From the IMG/VR virus record IMGVR_UViG_2728369593_000027, positions 1-16,506 of that record: DNA of 16,506 bases, one strand, 5' to 3'. This document shows positions 7,930 through 16,506 of this stretch, in pieces (position 1 is the stretch's first letter; each line of letters begins with the position of its first letter). Under the pieces are notes generated by a model. It was not told the DNA's origin. It did no database searches and worked only from the letters and a program-made list of their open reading frames with translations. A program made the position numbers and the translations under genes. The stretch comes from a virus (Duplodnaviria; Heunggongvirae; Uroviricota; Caudoviricetes).

Positions 7930-8383
7930 GCAGCAAATCCGGCAGGTCTGCCGCCAGTGCATGGACTGCTGCCGGGCGGGTGAAACATGGCCTCCGGACC
8001 TGGCTGAGTTTGTGGCGCTGATTTCGGAAAGCGGGGCCAATCCATTTGGTCTGACGGTGGATGCTGTGATGGAGGAGTACCGCCGCTGGCGCAATGAGTC
8101 CTGGCGATACGACGGAAGTGATAAGTACCCGTGGTCTCAGCCTGTGCTGTATCACATTTGCCTCGAGATGCGTTCAAAGGGGATTGAACGCCAGATGACC
8201 GAAGGGGAGTTAAAACGGCTTGCAGAACGGCAGCTGACGAAATGGGCAAAGCATGTTAGCAACGGCCTGAGTGTTCCGCCTGTCCGGCGACAACTGGCAG
8301 CACCCAAACGTCCTGCGGGACCAACGCCAATTGAGTTGCTGAAACAGGAATATGAACGCCGGAAAGCGGCTGGGTTTGTCTGA
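7718..8383 (+). CDS. Lambda-P-like replication protein (helicase loader family)
   Basis: 221-aa ORF, ATG at 7718 with AAGGGGGT 5 nt upstream. The C-terminal half (...FGLTVDAVMEEYRRWRNESWRYDGSDKYPWSQPVLYHICLEMRSKG...ELKRLAERQL...) parallels lambda P as I remember it. The 5' end overlaps the initiator reading frame by 212 nt. Confidence 0.7.
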   Translation: MQQHQVEPHHGQFRKFGQHVSSGNVKTDLSATETAWKLWELMGEVYSNRWTQKNGAAPSKLWIAQIGAMTEQQIRQVCRQCMDCCRAGETWPPDLAEFVALISESGANPFGLTVDAVMEEYRRWRNESWRYDGSDKYPWSQPVLYHICLEMRSKGIERQMTEGELKRLAERQLTKWAKHVSNGLSVPPVRRQLAAPKRPAGPTPIELLKQEYERRKAAGFV

Positions 8384-8415
8384 TTTGAGAAGTAATTTTT
8401 ACCGGGAGGAAATTT

Positions 8416-9162
8416 ATGGAGACTGTTTTTGACGCACTGAAAGCGATGGGAAAAGCCACGTCGGTAGAGCTGGCTGCGCGACTTGATATCAGTCGTGAAG
8501 AAGTGCTGAACGAGCTGTGGGAACTGAGAAAGGCTGGCTTCGTTGATAAAAGCGTATACACCTGGCGTGTGGCTTATAACAACGTTCAGCAGGAACAGCC
8601 AGCGCCGGCAGAACTGTCGGAAGAAACCACCACGGCAACAGTCGCTAAAATTTCGGAGTGCGATTTAACTGCGACGGTTGAACAACGCGGACCACAAACG
8701 GCTGATGAGCTGGCTACGTTGTTCGGTACAACATCACGCAAAGTGGCTTCAACGCTGGCAATGGCAATCAGCAAAGGTCGTCTGATTCGTGTAAACCAGA
8801 ACGGTAAATTTCGTTACTGCATGCCGGGCGATAAGTTACCAGCAGAGCCGAAATCCGTGCCGGTAACGGAAAATGATGGTAAAGCCTTTCCTCAGCCAGC
8901 AGGTGTTGCGTTACCAGTACAGGAAGCTGCAACACAGGAAGATATTAAAACAGAAACTGTGGCTGATATTGTGCAATCGTTGCCATCGTTTACTGAAACG
9001 CGAGCGGATGACCTGGTTTTACCATCGCTGCATATGGCAAACCGCGAATTGCGTCGGGCGAAAAGTCATGTCCAGAAGTGGGAGCGAGTCTGCGCCGCGC
9101 TGCGGGAGCTGAACAAGCACCGAGATATGGTTGCCGGGATTTGTCGGAAGTCCGGGCAATGA
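8416..9162 (+). CDS. Hypothetical protein with two winged-helix-like segments (248 aa)
   Basis: ATG at 8416 with GGGAGGA 5 nt upstream. Two segments look like winged-helix DNA-binding units (residues ~1-50 and ~85-135), followed by a basic C-terminus. No family identified. Confidence 0.6.
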
Positions 9163-10021
9163 GCGGATGGTGCAGGCCTGAAATTATGATACTAACAATG
9201 AAGGTAAAATGCATCGGCAGTCTGATTGGTCGTAGTGAGGCGGCGGTCAGGATGAAAGCCCGGGTTAAGGGAATAAGCCTGATTCTGCGGGGTAATTTTC
9301 ACCAGTCAACAAAATATCCGTAGCGCGATAACGGTCAAAAATCATGGCGCTGACACTTTTGTGCCACTGTAGATGACTGTACCTAAGTTCAGGGGAGAAG
9401 AACACGTCCGGTGGGATGGTCGGGCCAGATTTAAAGGGCAGGTCATGGCTCCAGCCAGTACGCTGGCAATGGAGGCTGCCTGGCTGGAAATTGATATGGG
9501 AACCACGCCACTCAGGGATTTACTGCCGGTCCAGAGAATAAATTCCTGTTACGGTTACACCACTGTGATCTTGCAAGTGCAGGAAAGTAGGTCTACACGG
9601 TAACGCGAGTGCGTGTAACTTTTGATGTTATTTCCGTAGAAACACCGGACAAATTTTCGCTGGCAGGTCATGCTGAAGGTATAAATCTGCAGATTATGGA
9701 CAATTACGGATATCCGGCAAGAGCCGGAAAAAGCATGCCGCCTCTAATTCTCAGTGGAAGATGGACTTGATTATACTCATTGCATTGTCAGAAATAGTTA
9801 TCCATTAAAGGCTGGCTATTCCAAACAGGATGTTGATTACAAAAATGTAATCAACATGTAAGGTTTATACTCTTCAATATGCGTATAATTTTCCTTATTT
9901 TGTTAACTTTAAATAACAAGCTATGCACGAGGTAAAGTCGGATAAGTTTATCTGGATGTAATATATATTATTTGTAGTGTTTATAACTTTATTTCATGAT
10001 AACCAATAAAAGGAGTTTTTT

Positions 10022-10780
10022 ATGAGGAACATAATGGCAGGTTTTTTAATATTCCTGTCTTCTGCTGCTTATGCTGATATCAATCTGTATGGTCCTGGTG
10101 GCCCGCATACAGCCTTGCTTGATGCAGCCAAACTTTATGCCGAAAAAACAGGTATTATAGTGAACGTTCATTACGGCCCACAGAACAAATGGAATGAAGA
10201 TGCCAAAAAAAATGCAGATATCTTGTTTGGCGCATCAGAACAATCTGCTCTGGCTATCATTCGGGACCATAAAGACAGCTTCAGTGAAAAAGATATTCAG
10301 CCTCTTTATCTGCGAAAAAGTATTTTACTGGTAAAGAAAGGTAATCCTAAAAATATCCGGAGTATTGACGACCTGACCAGACCCGGGATTGGCGTAATTG
10401 TTAATGATGGTGGTGGTACCAGTAATACATCAGGCACTGGCGTCTGGGAAGATATTGCCGGACGTAAAGGGAATATAGAAACTGTCGCCGCAATCCGAAA
10501 AAATATTATTTTATATGCGCCCAATAGCGGAACTGCACGTAAGGCTCTTGAGAATCAGCCTGAAGCAGATGTCTGGATAACCTGGGCTGACTGGGCAGCC
10601 AGTAATCCAGAAATTGGTGATGTCGTGGAAATAGCGCCAGACTACGTGATATGGCGTGATATGAACATTACAGTACGTCAGGATGCAAATGATGAAACCC
10701 GTCGATTTGCAGAATGGCTACAAACCGATGAAGCGGCGCCTGCATTCAAAAAATATGGCTGGACCAGGAAAGGCACTTGA
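10022..10780 (+). CDS. Orphan periplasmic solute-binding protein (ModA/PBP2-like) with signal peptide
   Basis: 252-aa ORF, ATG at 10022 with AGGAG 6 nt upstream. N-terminus MRNIMAGFLIFLSSAAYA has a signal-peptide pattern. C-terminal ...FAEWLQTDEAAPAFKKYGW resembles ModA-type binding proteins. No permease or ATPase gene adjacent; AT-rich upstream region. Confidence 0.75.
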   Translation: MRNIMAGFLIFLSSAAYADINLYGPGGPHTALLDAAKLYAEKTGIIVNVHYGPQNKWNEDAKKNADILFGASEQSALAIIRDHKDSFSEKDIQPLYLRKSILLVKKGNPKNIRSIDDLTRPGIGVIVNDGGGTSNTSGTGVWEDIAGRKGNIETVAAIRKNIILYAPNSGTARKALENQPEADVWITWADWAASNPEIGDVVEIAPDYVIWRDMNITVRQDANDETRRFAEWLQTDEAAPAFKKYGWTRKGT

Positions 10781-11118
10781 CATCCTCCACGTCCTTCAGA
10801 ACGTGGATTCTTTTTCCGGATGCCGCGCCAGCGGCATGTAGGGGCAGCTCACAAAACGGAAAAAATTGTACGCTAAGCCTCGCCAGGTGAACTGAATTCA
10901 TTCCGATATGGGAATTCCCATATCGGACGAAAACGGCTTGCTGTAACGGCAGAGTTAAGTAGAATTGCTGCGGGTGCTTGAGGCTATCTGCCTCGGGCAT
11001 GAACACCAACGGCAGATAGATAAAAGCCCCACCCGACTATAAATCGAAGTGAGGCCCCTATATGCTCGTCACATATAGATTGCCTCTTACGGACCGAAAG
11101 GTCAAGGAGAAGCAGGCT

Positions 11119-11274
11119 ATGAAGCAGCAAAAGGCGATGTTAATCGCCCTGATCGTCATCTGTTTAACCGTCATAGTGACGGCACTGGTAACGAGGAAAG
11201 ACCTCTGCGAGGTACGAATCCGAACCGGCCAGACGGAGGTCGCTGTCTTCACAGCTTACGAATCTGAGGAGTAA
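11119..11274 (+). CDS. hok: Hok/Gef-family type I toxin (51 aa)
   Basis: ATG at 11119 with AGGAG 9 nt upstream. Translation MKQQKAMLIALIVICLTVIVTALVTRKDLCEVRIRTGQTEVAVFTAYESEE is a typical Hok (single transmembrane helix, conserved Cys, RIRTGQTEVAVF). An in-frame upstream ATG at 11062 would add 19 residues. Confidence 0.85.
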   Translation: MKQQKAMLIALIVICLTVIVTALVTRKDLCEVRIRTGQTEVAVFTAYESEE

Positions 11275-11342
11275 GAGACCCGGCGGGGGAGAAATCCCTC
11301 GCCACCTCTGATGTGTCAGGCATTCTCAACGCACCCGCATTT

Positions 11343-11369
11343 AACCCGCTTCGGCGGGTTTTTGTTTTT
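11343..11369 (+). terminator. Rho-independent terminator downstream of hok
   Basis: Stem CCCGC (11345-11349), loop TTCG, stem GCGGG (11354-11358), then TTTTTGTTTTT. Confidence 0.6.
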
Positions 11370-11494
11370 ATTTTCAACGCGTTTGAAGTTCTGGGCGGTG
11401 CCGGAATAGAATCAAAAATACTTAAGTAGCGCGCAGGGATAAGAGGGATGGACCCCGAACAGGGGAGTGCTATTTATCTGGAAGGATTCTGTTG

Positions 11495-11755
11495 ATGAAA
11501 ATCGAAGAATTACGTGAAATTTTTACTGAAGATGGCCTCTATACTGTGCGCGTTGAGAATGGTGCTATTGTCAGTCACTGCCGTATTAAATGTTTACAAT
11601 CTAAACAAAGGAAGAGTGGTGCTGCGTTAATTTATTTTGTGGATGAACTTGTGACAGATGGTTTTATTTTGCGTGAAAATGAATTTGTCACATCATTGCA
11701 GTCTCTGAAAGAAGCTGGGCTTAAGGCTGGTTTTTCTGCTTTTGAAGATGAGTAA
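11495..11755 (+). CDS. Rem-like small protein (86 aa)
   Basis: ATG at 11495 with GGAAGGA 8 nt upstream. Occupies the position between hok and the DUF968 gene that rem holds in K-12 Qin; AT-rich codon usage. Function unknown. Confidence 0.5.
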   Translation: MKIEELREIFTEDGLYTVRVENGAIVSHCRIKCLQSKQRKSGAALIYFVDELVTDGFILRENEFVTSLQSLKEAGLKAGFSAFEDE

Positions 11756-11821
11756 ATTCATCTACAATTCAGCACAGGGCTGAACCCCTGTTGAGTAACA
11801 CTGTGCCACCGGAGAAAACCG

Positions 11822-12100
11822 ATGGCGCAAAATTCCAGACCACACAATTCTGATAATTCAGCCGTCTTTGCCAGCAGGCACGGGCGGCGTTCTCATGCAT
11901 TCAAATATGACTGGTACCAGCATGACCCATGCACTGAAGAACAGGCCGAATGGCTGATTCAGAACTACCGCAGGCGTGGGTATGAGTTTAGGAAAGCCCT
12001 CAGCCTCGATTATCGTCACTGGATAATCTACGTCAGGCTCCCTTATTCCGAACGCCCACCGCGTCCGTCCCGCACATTCCAGCAACGCATCTGGAGGTAA
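11822..12100 (+). CDS. Hypothetical protein (92 aa)
   Basis: ATG at 11822 with GGAGA upstream; stop TAA at 12098-12100 immediately precedes the GTG of the next gene, suggesting translational coupling. No family recognised. Confidence 0.5.
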   Translation: MAQNSRPHNSDNSAVFASRHGRRSHAFKYDWYQHDPCTEEQAEWLIQNYRRRGYEFRKALSLDYRHWIIYVRLPYSERPPRPSRTFQQRIWR

Positions 12101-12101
12101 C

Positions 12102-13151
12102 GTGCGGGTATTACTTCGACCTGTTCCGGTACCGGAACTTGGGCTGGTGGTCCTTAAGCCGGGCCGTGAATCCATGCAGGTATTTCATAACCCTCGAGTG
12201 CTGGTGGAGCCGGAACCAAAAAGCATGCGCGGTCTGCCGTCCGGAGTCGTTCCTGCCGTTCGCCAGCCGCTGGCGGAGGATAAATCATTACTGCCATTTT
12301 TCAGCGATGAGCGGGTGATTCGTGCTGCTGGCGGCGCTGGTGCACTGTCTGACTGGCTGTTGCGTCATGTCAAATCCTGCCAGTGGCCTCATGGTGACTA
12401 TCATCACAGTGAAACCGTCATACATCGTTACGGTACCGGCGCGATGGTGTTGTGCTGGCACTGCGACAACCAGCTGCGTGACCAGACCTCTGAATCACTC
12501 GGGCAACTTGCTCATCAAAACCTGTCAGCATGGATGATTGACGTCATACGCCATGCAATGAATGGCACACAGGAGCGGGAATTATCTCTGGCTGAATTAT
12601 CCTGGTGGGCGGTCCGCAATCAGGTGGCGGACGCGCTACCGGAAGCTGTATTACGTCGTTCACTGGGGTTGCGTGCGGAAAAAATCCGCTCCTTGTACCG
12701 CGAAAGCGACATCGTACCGGGAGAGCAGACCGCCACCAGCATACTGAAGCAGCGCACAAAAAATCTTGCGCCGTTGCTTCACACCCACCAGCCACAGAAC
12801 CCAGCACAGGAAAAGGCGGTGGTCAGCATTACCGTTGATCCGGAGTCTCCGGAATCCTTCATGAAACGACCTAAACGTCGCCGCTGGGTAAATGAGAAAT
12901 ACACACGCTGGGTAAAGACACAGCCGTGTACATGTTGTGGTAAGCCAGCAGACGATCCCCATCACCTGATTGGTCACGGTCAGGGCGGAATGGGGACAAA
13001 ATCTCACGATATTTTCACGCTACCGCTGTGTCGGGAGCATCACAACGAGCTTCATGCGGATCCGCTGGCGTTCGAAGAAAAGCATGGTTCCCAGGTTGAT
13101 TTAATTTTTCGTTTTCTTGATCACGCCTTTGCAACCGGCGTGCTCGGGTAA
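12102..13151 (+). CDS. ydfU: DUF968-family nin-region protein (YdfU-like) with C-terminal Cys/His-rich HNH-like motif
   Basis: 349-aa ORF, GTG at 12102 with GGAGG upstream. C-terminus ...CTCCGKPADDPHHLIGHGQGGMGTKSHDIFTLPLCREHHNELHADP... is the Cys/His signature I associate with DUF968/YdfU; sits just before rusA. Confidence 0.7.
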   Translation: MRVLLRPVPVPELGLVVLKPGRESMQVFHNPRVLVEPEPKSMRGLPSGVVPAVRQPLAEDKSLLPFFSDERVIRAAGGAGALSDWLLRHVKSCQWPHGDYHHSETVIHRYGTGAMVLCWHCDNQLRDQTSESLGQLAHQNLSAWMIDVIRHAMNGTQERELSLAELSWWAVRNQVADALPEAVLRRSLGLRAEKIRSLYRESDIVPGEQTATSILKQRTKNLAPLLHTHQPQNPAQEKAVVSITVDPESPESFMKRPKRRRWVNEKYTRWVKTQPCTCCGKPADDPHHLIGHGQGGMGTKSHDIFTLPLCREHHNELHADPLAFEEKHGSQVDLIFRFLDHAFATGVLG

Positions 13152-13163
13152 AAGAGGTTACTG

Positions 13164-13523
13164 ATGCGTATAGAGTTTGTTTTGCCTTACCCGCCGACGG
13201 TGAACACCTACTGGCGACGTCGTGGCAGCACATATTTTGTATCAAAAGCCGGTGAGCGTTATCGCCGGGATGTGGCACTTATTGTTCGCCAGCAGCGGCT
13301 GAAATTAAACCTGTCCGGAAGGCTGGCGATAAAGATTATTGCCGAGCCACCGGATAAGCGCCGCCGTGACCTGGACAATATTCTGAAAGCGCCGCTGGAT
13401 GCGCTGACGCATGCGGGGGTGCTAATGGACGATGAGCAGTTTGATGAAATCAATATTGTACGTGGTCAGCCAGTATCTGGTGGACGGCTGGGTGTGAAGA
13501 TTTACAAAATTGAGAGTGAGTGA
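13164..13523 (+). CDS. rusA: Holliday-junction resolvase RusA
   Basis: 119-aa ORF, ATG at 13164 with AAGAGG upstream. Contains the RusA catalytic region ...PDKRRRDLDNILKAPLDALTHAGVLMDDEQ.... Canonical position before Q. Confidence 0.85.
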   Translation: MRIEFVLPYPPTVNTYWRRRGSTYFVSKAGERYRRDVALIVRQQRLKLNLSGRLAIKIIAEPPDKRRRDLDNILKAPLDALTHAGVLMDDEQFDEINIVRGQPVSGGRLGVKIYKIESE

Positions 13524-13531
13524 GCGTAAAT

Positions 13532-14083
13532 ATGATATATCCGGAAATTACAGGCAAAAGCGGCGAACATTTACGCCTGAACACGCTGGAAGCAGTCTGG
13601 ATCCAGGGGAAATTACGGATGTGGGGGCGGTGGTCGTATATCGGTGGGGGTAAATCCGGAAATATGTTTAACCGGTTACTGGTTTCGAAAAAGCTGACGA
13701 AAACAGCAGTTAATGAGGTTTTACGCAGAATGAAGAAATCCGGGCTGGAAAAACCGGAACTTGAGGCATTTTTTCGGGATATGACAAGAGGAAAGCAGAA
13801 GAGCTGGTTGTCACATTGTACAGACACAGAGGCGTTGATTATTGATCGCGTTATCAGTGAGGTGCTTGGGGAATATCCCGGGCTAATCAATGTTCTCCGG
13901 CAAAGGTACGAAGGACGGGGAATGAGCAAACTGAACATGGCCGAAAGGTTAAATGCAGATCATCCTGATTGGTCGTTGGTTACGTGCAGACGCCGAATTG
14001 ATCAATGGTTGGGGGTATCTGAATTTATGTTATATGCCCCCATGCGCATGGCTTTTGTTACAGAGAAAAATGTTGCAAACTGA
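13532..14083 (+). CDS. Q-like late-gene antiterminator (assigned by position and context)
   Basis: 183 aa from the ATG at 13532 (track ORF begins at an overlapping GTG 13520). Lies immediately after rusA and directly upstream of a short leader ending in a strong intrinsic terminator, which is the Q/PR'/tR' arrangement. Family not verified. Confidence 0.6.
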   Translation: MIYPEITGKSGEHLRLNTLEAVWIQGKLRMWGRWSYIGGGKSGNMFNRLLVSKKLTKTAVNEVLRRMKKSGLEKPELEAFFRDMTRGKQKSWLSHCTDTEALIIDRVISEVLGEYPGLINVLRQRYEGRGMSKLNMAERLNADHPDWSLVTCRRRIDQWLGVSEFMLYAPMRMAFVTEKNVAN

Positions 14084-14162
14084 TCAATAAACTGCTTCAA
14101 TCCGTATAAGCTTCGCAAAGCTGTATCGCGAGGCGAAACGCAAGTTTTTTTCGCACAAGGAA

Positions 14163-14184
14163 GCCACCGGAAGGTGGTTTTTTT
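14163..14184 (+). terminator. tR'-like intrinsic terminator downstream of the Q-like gene
   Basis: Stem CCACC (14164-14168), GGAA tetraloop, stem GGTGG (14173-14177), then T7 (14178-14184). A second T7 run at 14145-14151 follows a weaker stem. Confidence 0.65.
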
Positions 14185-14307
14185 GTGTCCGCGATATACA
14201 GTAGCGCAATAAATTCGCTGGTGGTTATTAATACCGTTCTTTCAGCTTGCTGGCTTTTTCGACAAGAGTTATTGGTGTGTCACGTTAACCGGAAAAGGGA
14301 AAAAGAC

Positions 14308-14505
14308 ATGCTAAAACAGCAGGATATGACAGAAACCGCCAGAGTGGTGTTTAATGAATTAAGCGTTACCGAACCGGCGACAGTCGGGGAGATAGCGCAG
14401 AATACTTACCTTTCACGCGAACGCTGCCAGTTAATACTGACCCAGCTGGTTATGGCGGGTCTGGCAGACTATCAGTTCGGTTGTTACAGACGCCTTCCGC
14501 AGTGA
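14308..14505 (+). CDS. Small hypothetical protein (65 aa), possible winged-helix regulator upstream of the methyltransferase
   Basis: ATG at 14308 with AAGGG 8 nt upstream. The track ORF starts at GTG 14185, directly abutting the terminator T-run with no RBS, so the ATG is preferred. Stop TGA at 14503-14505 lies inside a terminator hairpin. Confidence 0.45.
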   Translation: MLKQQDMTETARVVFNELSVTEPATVGEIAQNTYLSRERCQLILTQLVMAGLADYQFGCYRRLPQ

Positions 14506-14516
14506 AGGCTTTTTTA
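14492..14516 (+). terminator. Intrinsic terminator overlapping the small-ORF stop codon
   Basis: Stem GCCTTC (14492-14497), loop CGCAGT, stem GAAGGC (14504-14509), then TTTTTT (14510-14515). Confidence 0.5.
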
Positions 14517-14655
14517 TTTGTGGTAAATGGGCGGCTGGTGGGTGTTAGGGGCACCCACCAGCCATCTGCTCATGCGTTGGGTTCACAAGCAAACCTCAGG
14601 CCCACTGCTTTGCGCAAAAGCAGAATGAGCCTATCAGAGACAGGCTTAATGATCC

Positions 14656-15705
14656 ATGCTTAATACTGTAAAAATATCCAGTTGTGAGTTAATCAACGCC
14701 GACTGCCTGGAATTTATCCGGTCGTTACCCGAAAATTCTGTTGACCTGATAGTCACGGACCCGCCGTACTTTAAAGTGAAGCCTGAGGGCTGGGATAACC
14801 AGTGGAAGGGCGACGATGATTACCTGAAGTGGCTGGACCAGTGTCTGGCGCAGTTCTGGCGGGTGCTGAAACCTGCCGGAAGTCTTTACCTGTTCTGTGG
14901 TCATCGCCTGGCATCTGATATCGAAATCATGATGCGTGAACGCTTCAGTGTGCTGAACCATATTATCTGGGCGAAGCCGTCCGGACGCTGGAACGGATGC
15001 AACAAGGAAAGCCTGCGGGCGTATTTCCCCGCCACAGAGCGCATTCTGTTCGCGGAACATTATCAGGGGCCGTATCGCCCGAAAGATGCCGGGTATGAGG
15101 CGAAGGGCAGGGAACTGAAACAGCATGTGATGGCCCAGCTGATTTCTTACTTTCGTGATGCACGCGCGGCCCTGGGGATAACGGCAAAACAGATTGCAGA
15201 TGCCACAGGAAAGAAAAACATGGTGTCGCACTGGTTCAGTGCCAGTCAGTGGCAGCTACCGAACGAAAGCGATTATCTGAAATTACAGTCGCTGTTTGCC
15301 CGGGTGGCAGAAGAGAAACATCAGCGGGGAGAACTGGAAAAGTCCCATTACCAACTGGTCAGCACATACAGTGAGCTGAACCGGCAGTATATGGAACTGC
15401 TGAGTGAATATAAAAATTTGCGGAGGTATTTCGGTGTGACGGTGCAGGTGCCGTACACCGATGTGTGGACGTATAAACCGGTGCAGTACTATCCAGGGAA
15501 ACATCCGTGCGAAAAACCGGCAGAAATGCTGCAGCAGATAATCAGCGCAAGTAGTCGTCCTGGTGATCTGGTTGCGGATTTTTTCATGGGGTCGGGTTCA
15601 ACGGTAAAAGCGGCGATGGCACTGGGGCGTCGTGCGATTGGTGTTGAGCTGGAGACCGGACGTTTTGAGCAGACAGTCAGGGAAGTTCAGGATTTAATCG
15701 TTTGA
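14656..15705 (+). CDS. Orphan DNA amino-methyltransferase, beta class (probably N6-adenine; N4-cytosine not excluded)
   Basis: 349-aa ORF, ATG at 14656. Motif IV DLIVTDPPY near the N-terminus and motif I DFFMGSGST near the C-terminus (order IV then I = beta class). No restriction endonuclease gene adjacent. Confidence 0.85.
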   Translation: MLNTVKISSCELINADCLEFIRSLPENSVDLIVTDPPYFKVKPEGWDNQWKGDDDYLKWLDQCLAQFWRVLKPAGSLYLFCGHRLASDIEIMMRERFSVLNHIIWAKPSGRWNGCNKESLRAYFPATERILFAEHYQGPYRPKDAGYEAKGRELKQHVMAQLISYFRDARAALGITAKQIADATGKKNMVSHWFSASQWQLPNESDYLKLQSLFARVAEEKHQRGELEKSHYQLVSTYSELNRQYMELLSEYKNLRRYFGVTVQVPYTDVWTYKPVQYYPGKHPCEKPAEMLQQIISASSRPGDLVADFFMGSGSTVKAAMALGRRAIGVELETGRFEQTVREVQDLIV

Positions 15706-15754
15706 AACGGATGAGATTGCAGAATTAATTACGCACCATTATTATTCTGCTCCC

Positions 15755-15830
15755 GGCCCTTTAGCTCAGTGGTGAGAGCGAGCGACTCATAATCGCCAGG
15801 TCGCTGGTTCAAATCCAGCAAGGGCCACCA
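15755..15830 (+). tRNA. ileZ: tRNA with CAU anticodon, ileX-like (tRNA-Ile2; Met not excluded)
   Basis: Hand-folded cloverleaf: acceptor GGCCCTT/AAGGGCC, D-arm GCTC-AGTGGTGA-GAGC, anticodon loop CUCAUAA, T-arm GCTGG-TTCAAAT-CCAGC, discriminator A, encoded CCA. Very similar to E. coli ileX as remembered. Confidence 0.8.
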
Positions 15831-15837
15831 TCACATA

Positions 15838-15914
15838 CCGCCATTAGCTCATCAGGAAAGAGCGCCAGCTTTCGAAGCTGGTTGCGCGGAGTTCGGGTCC
15901 CCGAAGGCGGTCCA
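15838..15914 (+). tRNA. argN: tRNA-Arg-like, anticodon UCG as folded (argN-like); imperfect stems
   Basis: Hand-folded: acceptor CCGCCAT/AAGGCGG with one A-A mismatch; anticodon arm CCAGC-TTTCGAA-GCTGG; T-arm CGGAG-TTCGGGT-CCCCG with one A-C mismatch; encoded CCA. Begins 7 nt after the previous tRNA. Confidence 0.65.
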
Positions 15915-15927
15915 TTATCTGTATCCT

Positions 15928-16004
15928 GCGTTGTTAGCTCAGCCGGACAGAGCAATTGCCTTCTAAGCAATCGGTCACTGGTTCGAATCCAGTACAACGC
16001 GCCA
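15928..16004 (+). tRNA. argO: tRNA-Arg (anticodon UCU, reads AGA/AGG), argO-like
   Basis: Hand-folded: acceptor GCGTTGT/ACAACGC, D-arm GCTC...GAGC, anticodon arm ATTGC-CTTCTAA-GCAAT, T-arm ACTGG-TTCGAAT-CCAGT, discriminator G, encoded CCA. Confidence 0.85.
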
Positions 16005-16019
16005 CACTTATTTTCCCTG

Positions 16020-16044
16020 GCTCGCTTTTGCGGGCTTTTTTTTT
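16020..16044 (+). terminator. Rho-independent terminator after the tRNA cluster
   Basis: Stem GCTCGC (16020-16025), loop TTTT, stem GCGGGC (16030-16035, one G-U pair), then T9 (16036-16044). Confidence 0.6.
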
Positions 16045-16132
16045 AAATGTCTCACAATTCAGGCGGTTGACTGTTGTCTGGTTTGCGGGGAGTTTGTTAA
16101 AAGAAACTGGCATGGTGAATCCCCCTGTGCGG

Positions 16133-16506
16133 CTGTCTCTTGATCAGATCTCCTGATCAAGAGACTTCATCACCAGGTAACCCTCAACCATATCCTGAAG
16201 TCTGAACCAGCCATCCCACATGACTACCCAACCGGGGCGACCGGTGCGTTTGCTGTCATGCCATCGCCCCAGTTTCGCCAGTTTCAGACAGGCCCATTTC
16301 AGTGTCGGCATCTGTGACGGAAGCGGTTTTCCTTCCAGCTTAACCCACAGCAGTTTCCACTCTGTCGGCGTCAGTATTTTCTCACAGCTGTCATTTTGTG
16401 TTTCTTCACTGATACCGCCCTGCCGCAGGCCCAGCACCCGCACCGCGATAAACGCCTTGATAACCACCATGCGCTCGAGGTTATCCCGGGTCTGCATTCG
16501 CACGAT
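16133..16506 (-). mobile_element. IS50-like (IS4-family) insertion sequence, inside-end portion; element continues beyond the window
   Basis: CTGTCTCTTGATCAGATCT at 16133-16151 is identical (19/19, from memory) to the Tn5/IS50 inside end. The transposase stop codon lies within it, as in IS50, and the gene body extends rightward out of the window. Confidence 0.75.
16144..16506 (-). CDS. IS50/Tn5-like transposase, C-terminal fragment (5' end outside window)
   Basis: Frame is open from the window edge to stop TGA at 16144-16146. C-terminal residues ...DNLERMVVIKAFIAVRVLGL...TLKWACLKLAKLGRWHDSKRTGRPGWVVMWDGW... parallel the Tn5 Tnp C-terminus (...DNLERMVSILSFVAVRLLQL...GGFMDSKRTGIASWGALWEGW...) but are clearly diverged. 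Confidence 0.8.
   Translation of the reverse strand: MVRMQTRDNLERMVVIKAFIAVRVLGLRQGGISEETQNDSCEKILTPTEWKLLWVKLEGKPLPSQMPTLKWACLKLAKLGRWHDSKRTGRPGWVVMWDGWFRLQDMVEGYLVMKSLDQEI

Follow-up and report, generated by a model that had tools for sequence, protein, structure and literature searches.

A conserved structured leader RNA of an M.EcoGII-type adenine methyltransferase gene and its putative Q-dependent late cassette in a lambdoid prophage

How a temperate phage can carry the gene of a DNA methyltransferase that would be harmful to its own lysogen, and what would keep such a gene silent before induction, is the question raised by a locus in a lambdoid prophage of Escherichia coli. The locus lies in virus record IMGVR_UViG_2728369593_000027, of which positions 1 to 16,506 were analysed; this whole stretch of 16,506 nucleotides is called the window in the following. 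In this order it carries a gene for a Q-type late antiterminator, a tR'-like intrinsic terminator, a 65-aa open reading frame (ORF), a second intrinsic terminator (t2), a GC-rich hairpin and an orphan methyltransferase gene. In a preliminary description, made from the letters of the window, it had been proposed that the methyltransferase is expressed only on Q-dependent read-through of the terminators, i.e., during lytic growth, and that it protects progeny DNA from restriction. This proposal was followed up here by computational analysis. The enzyme is 97% identical to the non-specific adenine methyltransferase M.EcoGII, and the hairpin is one helix of a conserved leader RNA. For the module as a whole we consider it probable that it is the promoter-proximal part of a Q-dependent lambdoid late operon, with a cargo cassette for a promiscuous toxic modification enzyme and a regulatory leader. 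The late-operon logic and the enzyme are already known; what appears to be newly described is the conserved structured leader. The coordinates of all features are collected in Table 1.

Identity of the methyltransferase and its leader RNA

The methyltransferase of the window matches the Pfam family N6_N4_Mtase with E=1.4e-44 over residues 29-340, with a central insertion, and has the motif order of the beta class, with VTDPPY at residues 33-38 and FFMGSGST at residues 309-316. No restriction gene was found beside it, the neighbours being tRNA genes on the 3' side and Q and RusA on the 5' side. Motif order, Pfam match and the missing restriction gene thus agree with the earlier assignment as an orphan amino-methyltransferase of the beta class. 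In an alignment with M.EcoGII, 338 of 350 positions are identical (97%), and both proteins have 349 aa. The M.EcoGII reference was taken from Supplementary Table S1 of the SUPREM paper (PMC11551740) as a machine-read copy with some errors, the true identity being probably slightly higher and some of the about 8-12 residue differences being reading errors in this copy.

M.EcoGII is a 349-aa beta-class enzyme from a prophage of E. coli O104:H4 C227-11 that modifies adenine in any context; it is non-specific for adenine in both DNA and RNA, as is its paralogue M.EcoGI, with which it shares 333 of 349 residues (PMC5778455). A "very similar" enzyme is carried by phage 1720a-02 (PMC5778455). The window enzyme has in common with M.EcoGI and M.EcoGII the length, the beta-class order DPPY ... 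FxGxG and the nature of a prophage-borne orphan. For M.EcoGII no solved structure was found in the PDB, which holds only distant beta-class relatives (RsrI, CcrM, MboIIA and one methyltransferase at E=5e-26). Judged by its sequence, the window enzyme is an orthologue of M.EcoGII and as such a predicted non-specific N6-adenine methyltransferase of DNA (and RNA). The preliminary description had treated it as a site-specific orphan and had set N6-adenine against N4-cytosine as its target; from the 97% identity to the characterised M.EcoGII, the product would be N6-methyladenine (m6A) and there would be no target motif to assign, so that the idea of a site-specific enzyme has to be given up.

Both M.EcoGI and M.EcoGII were reported to be unexpressed in the lysogen and deleterious under constitutive expression (PMC5778455), and homologues were inactive in the methylomes of O111 Shiga toxin-producing E. 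coli (PMC6602927). It was presumed by the authors that M.EcoGI and M.EcoGII are turned on at induction (PMC5778455; PMC6602927). Upstream terminators, a small ORF or a leader RNA are not described in the M.EcoGI/GII papers that were searched.

The GC-rich 12-bp hairpin in front of the methyltransferase, to which the preliminary description had drawn attention, is present and folds with -29.9 kcal/mol (z = -5.2), with no T-run behind it. It does not stand alone, however, and is helix P2 of a larger leader that fills the space between t2 and the methyltransferase. The helices of this leader were derived from 43 enterobacterial leader sequences. By sequence comparison the conservation of the leader exceeds that of the flanking genes and goes beyond neutral expectation: identity to the window is 70-82% in the leader, against 40-56% at the third codon positions of the methyltransferase. 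About 32 loci have a spacer of 137-154 nt between small ORF and methyltransferase, and with a single exception it measures 147-154 nt; in loci without the small ORF the leader is retained.

When the 43 leaders were aligned with MAFFT, 94.6% of the cells pair, compared to 27-44% with slid partners, and nine pairs are changed on both sides, which was not reached in any of the shuffles (0/500). The covarying pair 14567/14591 is the clearest one, occurring as C-G, U-A, A-U or U-G. In addition, several single-sided changes in P2 remain paired only as plus-strand G-U, which points to an RNA and not to a DNA structure. A covariance model (R1) built on the leader finds the motif only 5' of methyltransferase genes and only on the plus strand. 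It matches all enterobacterial loci except two, further loci in Zooshikella, Gilliamella and Acinetobacter, and 52 of 82 distant viral contigs, the methyltransferases of which are 44-67% identical to the Zooshikella enzyme. Directly 3' of the leader there is always a start codon, which belongs either to the methyltransferase or to a Com-like ORF in front of it. Among 59 diverse members 88% of the cells pair versus 29-37% when slid, 34 of 38 pairs have changes in both partners and covariation is scored at 0.42 versus 0.13 for shuffled alignments (0/500), in an alignment (A4) that was fitted to the model and therefore leans toward the proposed structure. RNAalifold recovers P1-P4 and part of P5 from the same alignment, and single-sequence folds of distant members yield the same three-way junction. 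Highly conserved nucleotides are the GAAA 5' of P1, the CCAAG of J3/1, the internal loop of P3 and its loop sequence GGUCAC.

In Rfam 15 no family was found for this region, either at gathering thresholds or in a permissive scan of 14050-14720; the best match below threshold, P26, was discarded (minus strand, 24 bits versus a threshold of 36). A published RNA motif 5' of such methyltransferases was not found in the literature search. Two other readings of the same letters were tried and rejected. A tRNA- or tmRNA-like leader was ruled out, as ARAGORN calls only the three tRNAs, and a 60-aa ORF at 14481-14663 is not taken as coding, having no Pfam match and single-base indels among relatives.

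Table 1. Features of the window, and Com-type ORFs of distant phages, with their coordinates
Feature	Position	Strand	Remarks
Q-type late antiterminator gene	13532-14083	plus	183 aa from ATG; GTG start at 13520 gives 187 aa; DUF1133, distant Q21 family
Candidate PR'	14073-14101	plus	-35 TTGCAA 14073-14078, 17-nt spacer, -10 TTCAAT 14096-14101
Predicted short PR'-tR' transcript, ~75 nt	14108-14184	plus	start inferred; two small hairpins, then terminator
tR'-like intrinsic terminator	14155-14186	plus	core stem 14164-14177, T7 14178-14184; A-rich 5' flank
Mobile cargo cassette (small ORF, leader, methyltransferase, three tRNAs, terminator)	14207-16050	plus	from similarity boundaries
Conserved block 5' of small ORF	14246-14283	plus	CTTGCTG 14246-14252, then AAGAGTTATTGGTGTGTCAC 14264-14283
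Stand-alone winged-helix protein, 65 aa (predicted)	14308-14505	plus	ATG preceded by AAGGG; phrog_331 E=1e-37
Second intrinsic terminator t2	14492-14516	plus	overlaps stop codon of small ORF; scan and folding
Structured 5' leader RNA of methyltransferase, ~135 nt	14520-14655	plus	conservation, covariation, covariance model
Leader helix P1	14528-14532 with 14600-14604	plus	UGGGC/GCCCA; closes three-way junction with P2 and P3
Leader helix P2 (12-bp hairpin)	14533-14563	plus	perfect stem, 7-nt loop
Leader helix P3	14565-14593	plus	third arm of three-way junction
Leader helix P4	14605-14623	plus	hairpin after three-way junction
Leader helix P5	14624-14650	plus	ends 5 nt before ATG; GATCC between
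N6-adenine methyltransferase, M.EcoGI/GII family	14656-15705	plus	349 aa, beta class, orphan; 97% identity to M.EcoGII
Three phage tRNAs: ileZ-type (CAT anticodon), argN TCG, argO TCT	15755-16004	plus	ARAGORN, records
Intrinsic terminator 3' of tRNAs	16019-16045	plus	7-bp stem, T9; scan and folding
ISEc13 (IS4-family)	~16133-16506		ORF 16144-16503 on minus strand; BLAST
DicF small RNA gene	4541-4592	minus	76.7 bits
sok antitoxin RNA of hok/sok (hokD-type) locus	10972-11121	plus	103.9 bits
Com-type ORFs in distant phages	L072 3820-4008; L311 1347-1538; L167 1301-1438		also L157-L163, L173, L180; com-mom-like cassettes, methyltransferase replacing Mom

Position of the cassette in a late operon

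The gene ending at 14083 had been taken for a Q antiterminator, and this is borne out by several matches: the protein hits Pfam DUF1133 with 348 bits, Phage_antitermQ with 30.5 bits (cut-off 26) and phrog_753 ("anti-termination protein Q-like"), and it matches the solved Q21 structure 6p18 with E=1.3e-5 (about 1e-5 for 6p18/6jnx). In RefSeq the identical gene is annotated as "DUF1133 family protein". A Q21-type cassette consists of Q gene, PR', pause element, terminator and late genes (bioRxiv 10.1101/651190). With the Q-PR'-tR' cassettes of the lambdoid phages lambda, 21, 82 and 933W the window shares the Q gene, an intrinsic terminator and late genes, and it would also share the promoter and the short transcribed leader between them; in difference to them its Q belongs to the DUF1133 subfamily and aligns to Q21 at the ends only.

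The weak PR' candidate overlapping the end of the Q gene was found again where it had been described. Each of its hexamers agrees with the consensus at four of six positions, and the site stays under the threshold of the promoter scan. Behind Q alleles with 87, 78 and 46% identity, two hexamers stand at the corresponding positions, again 17 nt apart; they read TTGCTT/TTGAAT, TTGCTT/TTCAAT and TTGATA/TCATAT, respectively, and the sequence between them varies. Kept hexamers and spacing around a changing spacer are the behaviour that would be expected of a real promoter.

A direct repeat of AAACTG is found in the spacer of PR' (14077-14082 and 14089-14094, 12 bp apart), of which other Q alleles retain the downstream copy alone. 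By analogy to Q21, whose binding element consists of two directly repeated subsites of 8 bp (bioRxiv 10.1101/651190), this repeat could be a candidate Q-binding element.

From PR' to tR' a short transcript is predicted, which folds with -32.2 kcal/mol (z = -4.7). The transcribed segment GCTTCGCAAAGCTGTATCGCGAGGCGAA is common to Q alleles that carry different terminators. In Shiga toxin (Stx) phages the short PR'-tR' RNA gives rise to StxS (PMC7547250), and the RNA of about 75 nt predicted for the window would be its analogue. The distance from PR' to tR' is about 75 nt here and 258 nt in Stx phages, and no sequence similarity of the PR'-tR' RNA to StxS was seen.

The two intrinsic terminators that had been described on both sides of the 65-aa ORF are present at their positions, by sequence as well as by folding. 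The stem of tR' (CCACC-GGAA-GGTGG) is followed by T7 and folds with -19.4 kcal/mol (z = -5.2); the consensus scan reported this hairpin on the minus strand only, and the plus-strand T7 was taken directly from the sequence. Second in order, t2 consists of GCCTTC-CGCAGT-GAAGGC (14492-14509), i.e., a 6-bp stem, followed by T6, and folds with -8.9 kcal/mol (z = -2.65); in relatives this hairpin is preserved despite altered arm sequences, and in loci without the small ORF a strong terminator still lies directly 5' of the leader. Terminator-like sites are no more frequent in the region than would be expected by chance (four found versus 3.1 expected); the case for the two terminators therefore rests on their position and conservation. 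A plus-strand sigma-70 promoter-like site was not found between 13400 and 16506 in the consensus scan. As an observation on its own, the A-rich 5' flank of tR' mirrors the T7 tail, and all 32 nt (14155-14186) can pair, as in bidirectional terminators.

Behind tR' the window enters a sequence that is shared with many Stx phages. Similarity to phage 1720a-02, to phiP27 L23/L24 and to Stx2a, Stx2c and Stx2d phages begins at 14207-14216 and continues through the tRNAs. Nucleotide identity of the cassette to Stx2 phages is 88-93%, and the best phage match is 1720a-02 with 93.6%. In all of them the small ORF, the methyltransferase and ileZ/argN/argO follow Q, and in phiP27 the order is Q, small ORF, methyltransferase, tRNAs and stx2e; unlike in these phages, no stx genes follow the cassette in the window.

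For a wider comparison 80 viral and prophage loci of E. coli were used, the methyltransferases of which are 94-100% identical to the window enzyme. In 39 of the 80 the similarity starts at 14207. The sequence 5' of this junction falls into several unrelated classes, with at least five Q/PR' modules, and every class ends in a strong GC hairpin with T7-9 about 25-30 nt before the cassette junction; the same placement of hairpin and T7-9 is seen in other enterobacterial genera. The E2348/69 prophage (NC_011601.1 1441845-1443111) has a different Q of 229 aa, followed by tRNA-Ile and tRNA-Arg and then the insertion sequence ISEc13, and carries no small ORF, leader or methyltransferase. From the unrelated upstream classes and the cassette-free E2348/69 it can therefore be concluded, at the level of sequence comparison, that the cassette is an optional cargo that has repeatedly settled just 3' of tR' in Q-controlled late operons. 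Late expression under the control of Q and an anti-restriction role like that of Mom would fit this position behind the tR' of unrelated Q/PR' modules.

The small winged-helix gene and neighbouring features

Judged from its conservation, the 65-aa ORF that had been noted between the terminators is a real gene under purifying selection. Of 50 enterobacterial loci, about 35 have it 5' of the methyltransferase gene, the identity reaching down to 37%; dN is 0.08-0.21, with saturated synonymous sites and dN/dS of about 0.1 or less. A longer form of 106 aa with a GTG start (14185-14505) was rejected, as it starts inside the T-run of the terminator and conservation begins at the ATG at 14308.

The names given to the protein in RefSeq are "TrmB family" or "DprA-like winged helix". 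An AlphaFold model (pLDDT 91.8) has an H-H-H-beta-hairpin fold, for which the best structural matches are the winged-helix domains of MarR/IclR regulators, of O-methyltransferases and of the RNA-binding SelB. In the preliminary description it had been suggested, as a speculation, that the small protein could be a controller. Model and matches point to a winged helix and not to a C protein of the Xre type, and such a fold would be compatible with binding of DNA or RNA alike. In about one third of the related enterobacterial loci, leader and methyltransferase are present but the small ORF is missing, and its place before the leader is taken by other genes. By its distribution, the winged-helix gene is a frequent, non-obligatory partner of the methyltransferase. 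In loci L012 and L018, neither of which has the winged-helix ORF, the leader is preceded by an ORF (3558-3797) for a cysteine-rich, zinc-finger-like protein of 79 aa, which may be a further small partner without homology to the winged-helix protein.

About 44 nt before the ATG of the small ORF lies a conserved block, CTTGCTG followed by AGAGTTATCTGTATGTCAC, which is confined to loci with the small ORF and occurs on the plus strand only. Its function may be that of a weak promoter, of an operator or of an element of the 5' untranslated region (UTR). A small protein of a DNA-binding type just 5' of a modification gene, with a conserved block before its own gene, is also found with the C proteins of restriction-modification systems. 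However, these are Xre-type helix-turn-helix proteins, whereas the protein of the window has a predicted winged helix, is not accompanied by an endonuclease gene and is missing in one third of the loci. In addition, a palindrome like a C-box is not conserved at the block, and the CAGA/TCTG dyad of relatives is lost in the window.

Further features of the window surround this module. It is part of a lambdoid prophage in which a DUF968 gene, RusA and the Q-type gene follow each other in this order, and from 13500 to 16132 it is 100% identical to prophages of E. coli D1, O55:H7 DEC5B and others. In the DEC5B prophage the tRNAs are followed by iraM and lysis genes. The first tRNA (15755-15830) is called as Met(CAT) by ARAGORN and listed as tRNA-Ile, ileZ, in RefSeq and phage records; we take it to be the isoleucine tRNA that is usual in Stx-type phages, with a lysidine-modified CAT anticodon. 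ISEc13 at the end of the window shows 99.7% identity to the copies in E2348/69; IS50/Tn5, which had been considered from the end sequence, was ruled out by this BLAST result. Genes for two small RNAs, DicF and sok, are located elsewhere in the prophage (Table 1).

Control of the methyltransferase: model and alternatives

Its conservation, its covarying helices and its constant place before a start codon suggest that the leader is most likely a cis-acting regulator of methyltransferase translation. In most members, including the window, a canonical Shine-Dalgarno sequence is absent before the start codon. Enterobacterial members carry UGAUC by the start codon, which is complementary to part of the 3' end of 16S rRNA. 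On its 5' side the leader directly follows a terminator in most clades. When single sequences are folded, the structure of minimum free energy for the window and several relatives is an alternative fold, in which AUGGGC pairs with GCUCAU and the freed 3' strand of P3 with GCUU...UGAUC beside the AUG; this predicted fold suggests a two-state switch. In a distant clade an ORF of 38-63 aa for a Com-type zinc ribbon (PF10122) is inserted between leader and methyltransferase, with scores of 48 bits in L072 and L311 and 23.3 bits in L167 (cut-off 22.9). A more tentative proposal, which we find plausible and which may well prove wrong, is that the leader represents a new class of cis-regulatory RNA for M.EcoGII-type methyltransferases of temperate phages. 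What it would sense in order to gate the translation of the self-toxic enzyme may be a small molecule, a Com-like or winged-helix protein of the phage or the methyltransferase itself. The latter could run as an m6A-based feedback loop, which is conceivable because M.EcoGII methylates RNA too.

The course of events that we envisage is as follows. In the lysogen, polymerase starting from PR' would stop at tR' (14164-14184), and only the short RNA of about 75 nt would be made. On induction, Q would render the polymerase terminator-resistant, leading to read-through of both tR' and t2, and transcription would reach the winged-helix gene, the leader, the methyltransferase and the three tRNAs, in intact relatives also the stx or lysis genes. 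The methyltransferase made at this late stage would cover replicating and packaged phage DNA with m6A in any sequence context and thereby shield the progeny from many restriction systems in the next host, like Mom of phage Mu and Hia5/Hin1523. For such a harmful enzyme, additional control within the mRNA would make sense, and the leader may provide it by gating or limiting translation initiation; a possible route would be an exchange between the three-way junction and the alternative fold, with the P3 3' strand paired just 5' of the AUG. The initial claim that the methyltransferase is made only via Q read-through is consistent with the position in a late operon, the two terminators, the lack of a sigma-70 site and the published silence in lysogens. 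It holds less well for the small ORF, which might have transcription of its own via the block at 14246-14283.

The proposed role in protecting progeny DNA fits the precedent of Mom and Hia5 (PMC3299994). In com-hin1523 and com-hia5 the place of mom is taken by genes for non-specific adenine methyltransferases, for which repression up to the lytic cycle is presumed (PMC3299994). By analogy, the cassette would share with Mu com-mom and with these systems a toxic, broad anti-restriction enzyme that modifies adenine and is made late, and it would resemble Mu com-mom in having a small, possibly regulatory gene upstream and in the suggested control via mRNA structure at the start site. In distant relatives of the window methyltransferase, a Com zinc-ribbon ORF does stand before the methyltransferase, as it stands before mom in Mu com-mom and before the methyltransferases of com-hin1523 and com-hia5; in these relatives it follows the leader. 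In the window, in contrast, the small protein is predicted to be a winged helix and not Com, and its gene lies 5' of the leader with a terminator between them. Transcription would be controlled by Q antitermination, versus the C protein with Dam/OxyR in Mu. The covariance search gave no match for the leader motif in Mu com-mom.

Orphan methyltransferases such as Dam and CcrM have regulatory roles, and the window enzyme might likewise be a constitutive epigenetic regulator or a host-protective enzyme in the lysogen, the upstream hairpins being incidental. We hold this to be very improbable, as a non-specific enzyme is incompatible with site-specific regulation, the gene stands behind two terminators with no promoter upstream, and the hairpin belongs to a structure under selection; moreover, the near-identical M.EcoGI and M.EcoGII gave no detectable methylation in lysogens and were deleterious when expressed (PMC5778455; PMC6602927). 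A serious competitor, unlikely in our judgement, concerns the small winged-helix gene, which could be an autonomous moron-like unit of promoter, ORF and terminator that is expressed in the lysogen and whose product represses or controls the methyltransferase or serves another function there. Control of the methyltransferase would then not be Q read-through alone. Such a unit would account for the -35-like CTTGCTG and the 20-nt block, which are strictly linked to the ORF and lie between it and tR' about 44 nt before the ATG, for the hairpin or terminator directly 3' of the ORF, and for the strong purifying selection on a protein with a fold typical of DNA-binding regulators. However, the conserved T at the last position is missing from the best -10 candidates, TATTGG in the window and TATCTG in relatives, and the scan gave no promoter above its threshold. 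Nor does the 14246-14283 block have an operator-like copy near the methyltransferase, and the winged-helix gene, being missing from about one third of the loci that keep leader and methyltransferase, cannot be an essential off-switch.

For the leader, too, other functions than translational control in cis have to be considered. It might be an element of RNA processing or stability, i.e., a tRNA-like structure or RNase target that separates the methyltransferase-tRNA transcript, or a trans-acting small RNA. A three-way junction followed by hairpins, tRNAs downstream in the same transcript and a terminator directly 5' in most clades would suit this, and short RNAs of antiterminated late operons can become small RNAs (PMC7547250). 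What makes such a role rather improbable is that the leader has no terminator of its own and always abuts with its 3' end the start codon of the next ORF, be it the methyltransferase or a Com-like ORF, and that at the leader no tRNA or tmRNA was called, no Rfam match was obtained and no promoter is predicted upstream. We are still more doubtful about a ligand-sensing riboswitch that would set methyltransferase translation in response to S-adenosylmethionine (SAM), S-adenosylhomocysteine (SAH) or another late-infection signal. The leader does show the generic trait of riboswitches, a conserved, covarying structured element in the 5' UTR of linked genes; its junction nucleotides are highly conserved together with covarying helices, two mutually exclusive folds are possible and the product of the controlled gene uses SAM. 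It has, however, no likeness to any known riboswitch class, the alternative fold is without covariation, and its association with a single family of enzymes encoded on mobile elements would be expected just as much of a site for protein binding or autoregulation. The gene for a Com-like translational activator that is attached in some clades argues for protein-mediated control.

Several points speak against the Q-dependent late operon with a regulatory leader as we prefer to read it. The PR' candidate is weak by consensus and misses the scan threshold, the U-tract of t2 is degenerate in many relatives, and the -35-like CTTGCTG block could be a promoter that makes at least the small ORF independent of Q; this block is the chief uncertainty in the claim that the whole module is Q-dependent. 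On the side of the leader, the larger covariation alignment is biased toward the structure as mentioned above. For the alternative fold ("state B") no covariation beyond conservation was found: 80% of its cells pair versus 78% in shuffled alignments, and double-sided changes are not above shuffles. A pairing or pseudoknot between the P3 loop and the start region is likewise unsupported (mean longest complementarity 4.25 versus 4.29 for shuffled loops). In the window itself ISEc13 cuts the late operon just 3' of the tRNA terminator; because of this interruption, and as relatives free of the insertion continue into iraM and lysis genes, the prophage of the window may be defective. Finally, no paper on m6A hypermethylation of virions by M.EcoGII-type enzymes after induction was found in the literature search.

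M.EcoGII is a widely used tool for the non-specific m6A footprinting of chromatin and RNA, while its natural regulation and its role for the phage have so far only been guessed. The Q-dependent late cassette proposed here offers a concrete model of how a sequence-independent anti-restriction modification could be deployed without killing the lysogen, the layers of control in this model being two terminators and, behind them, the conserved leader structure. As a candidate for a new regulatory RNA the leader can be put to the test; it is widespread in prophages of Gammaproteobacteria and, in Stx phages, shares its transcript with the toxin genes. It might also help to tame the expression of toxic M.EcoGII-type enzymes in the laboratory.

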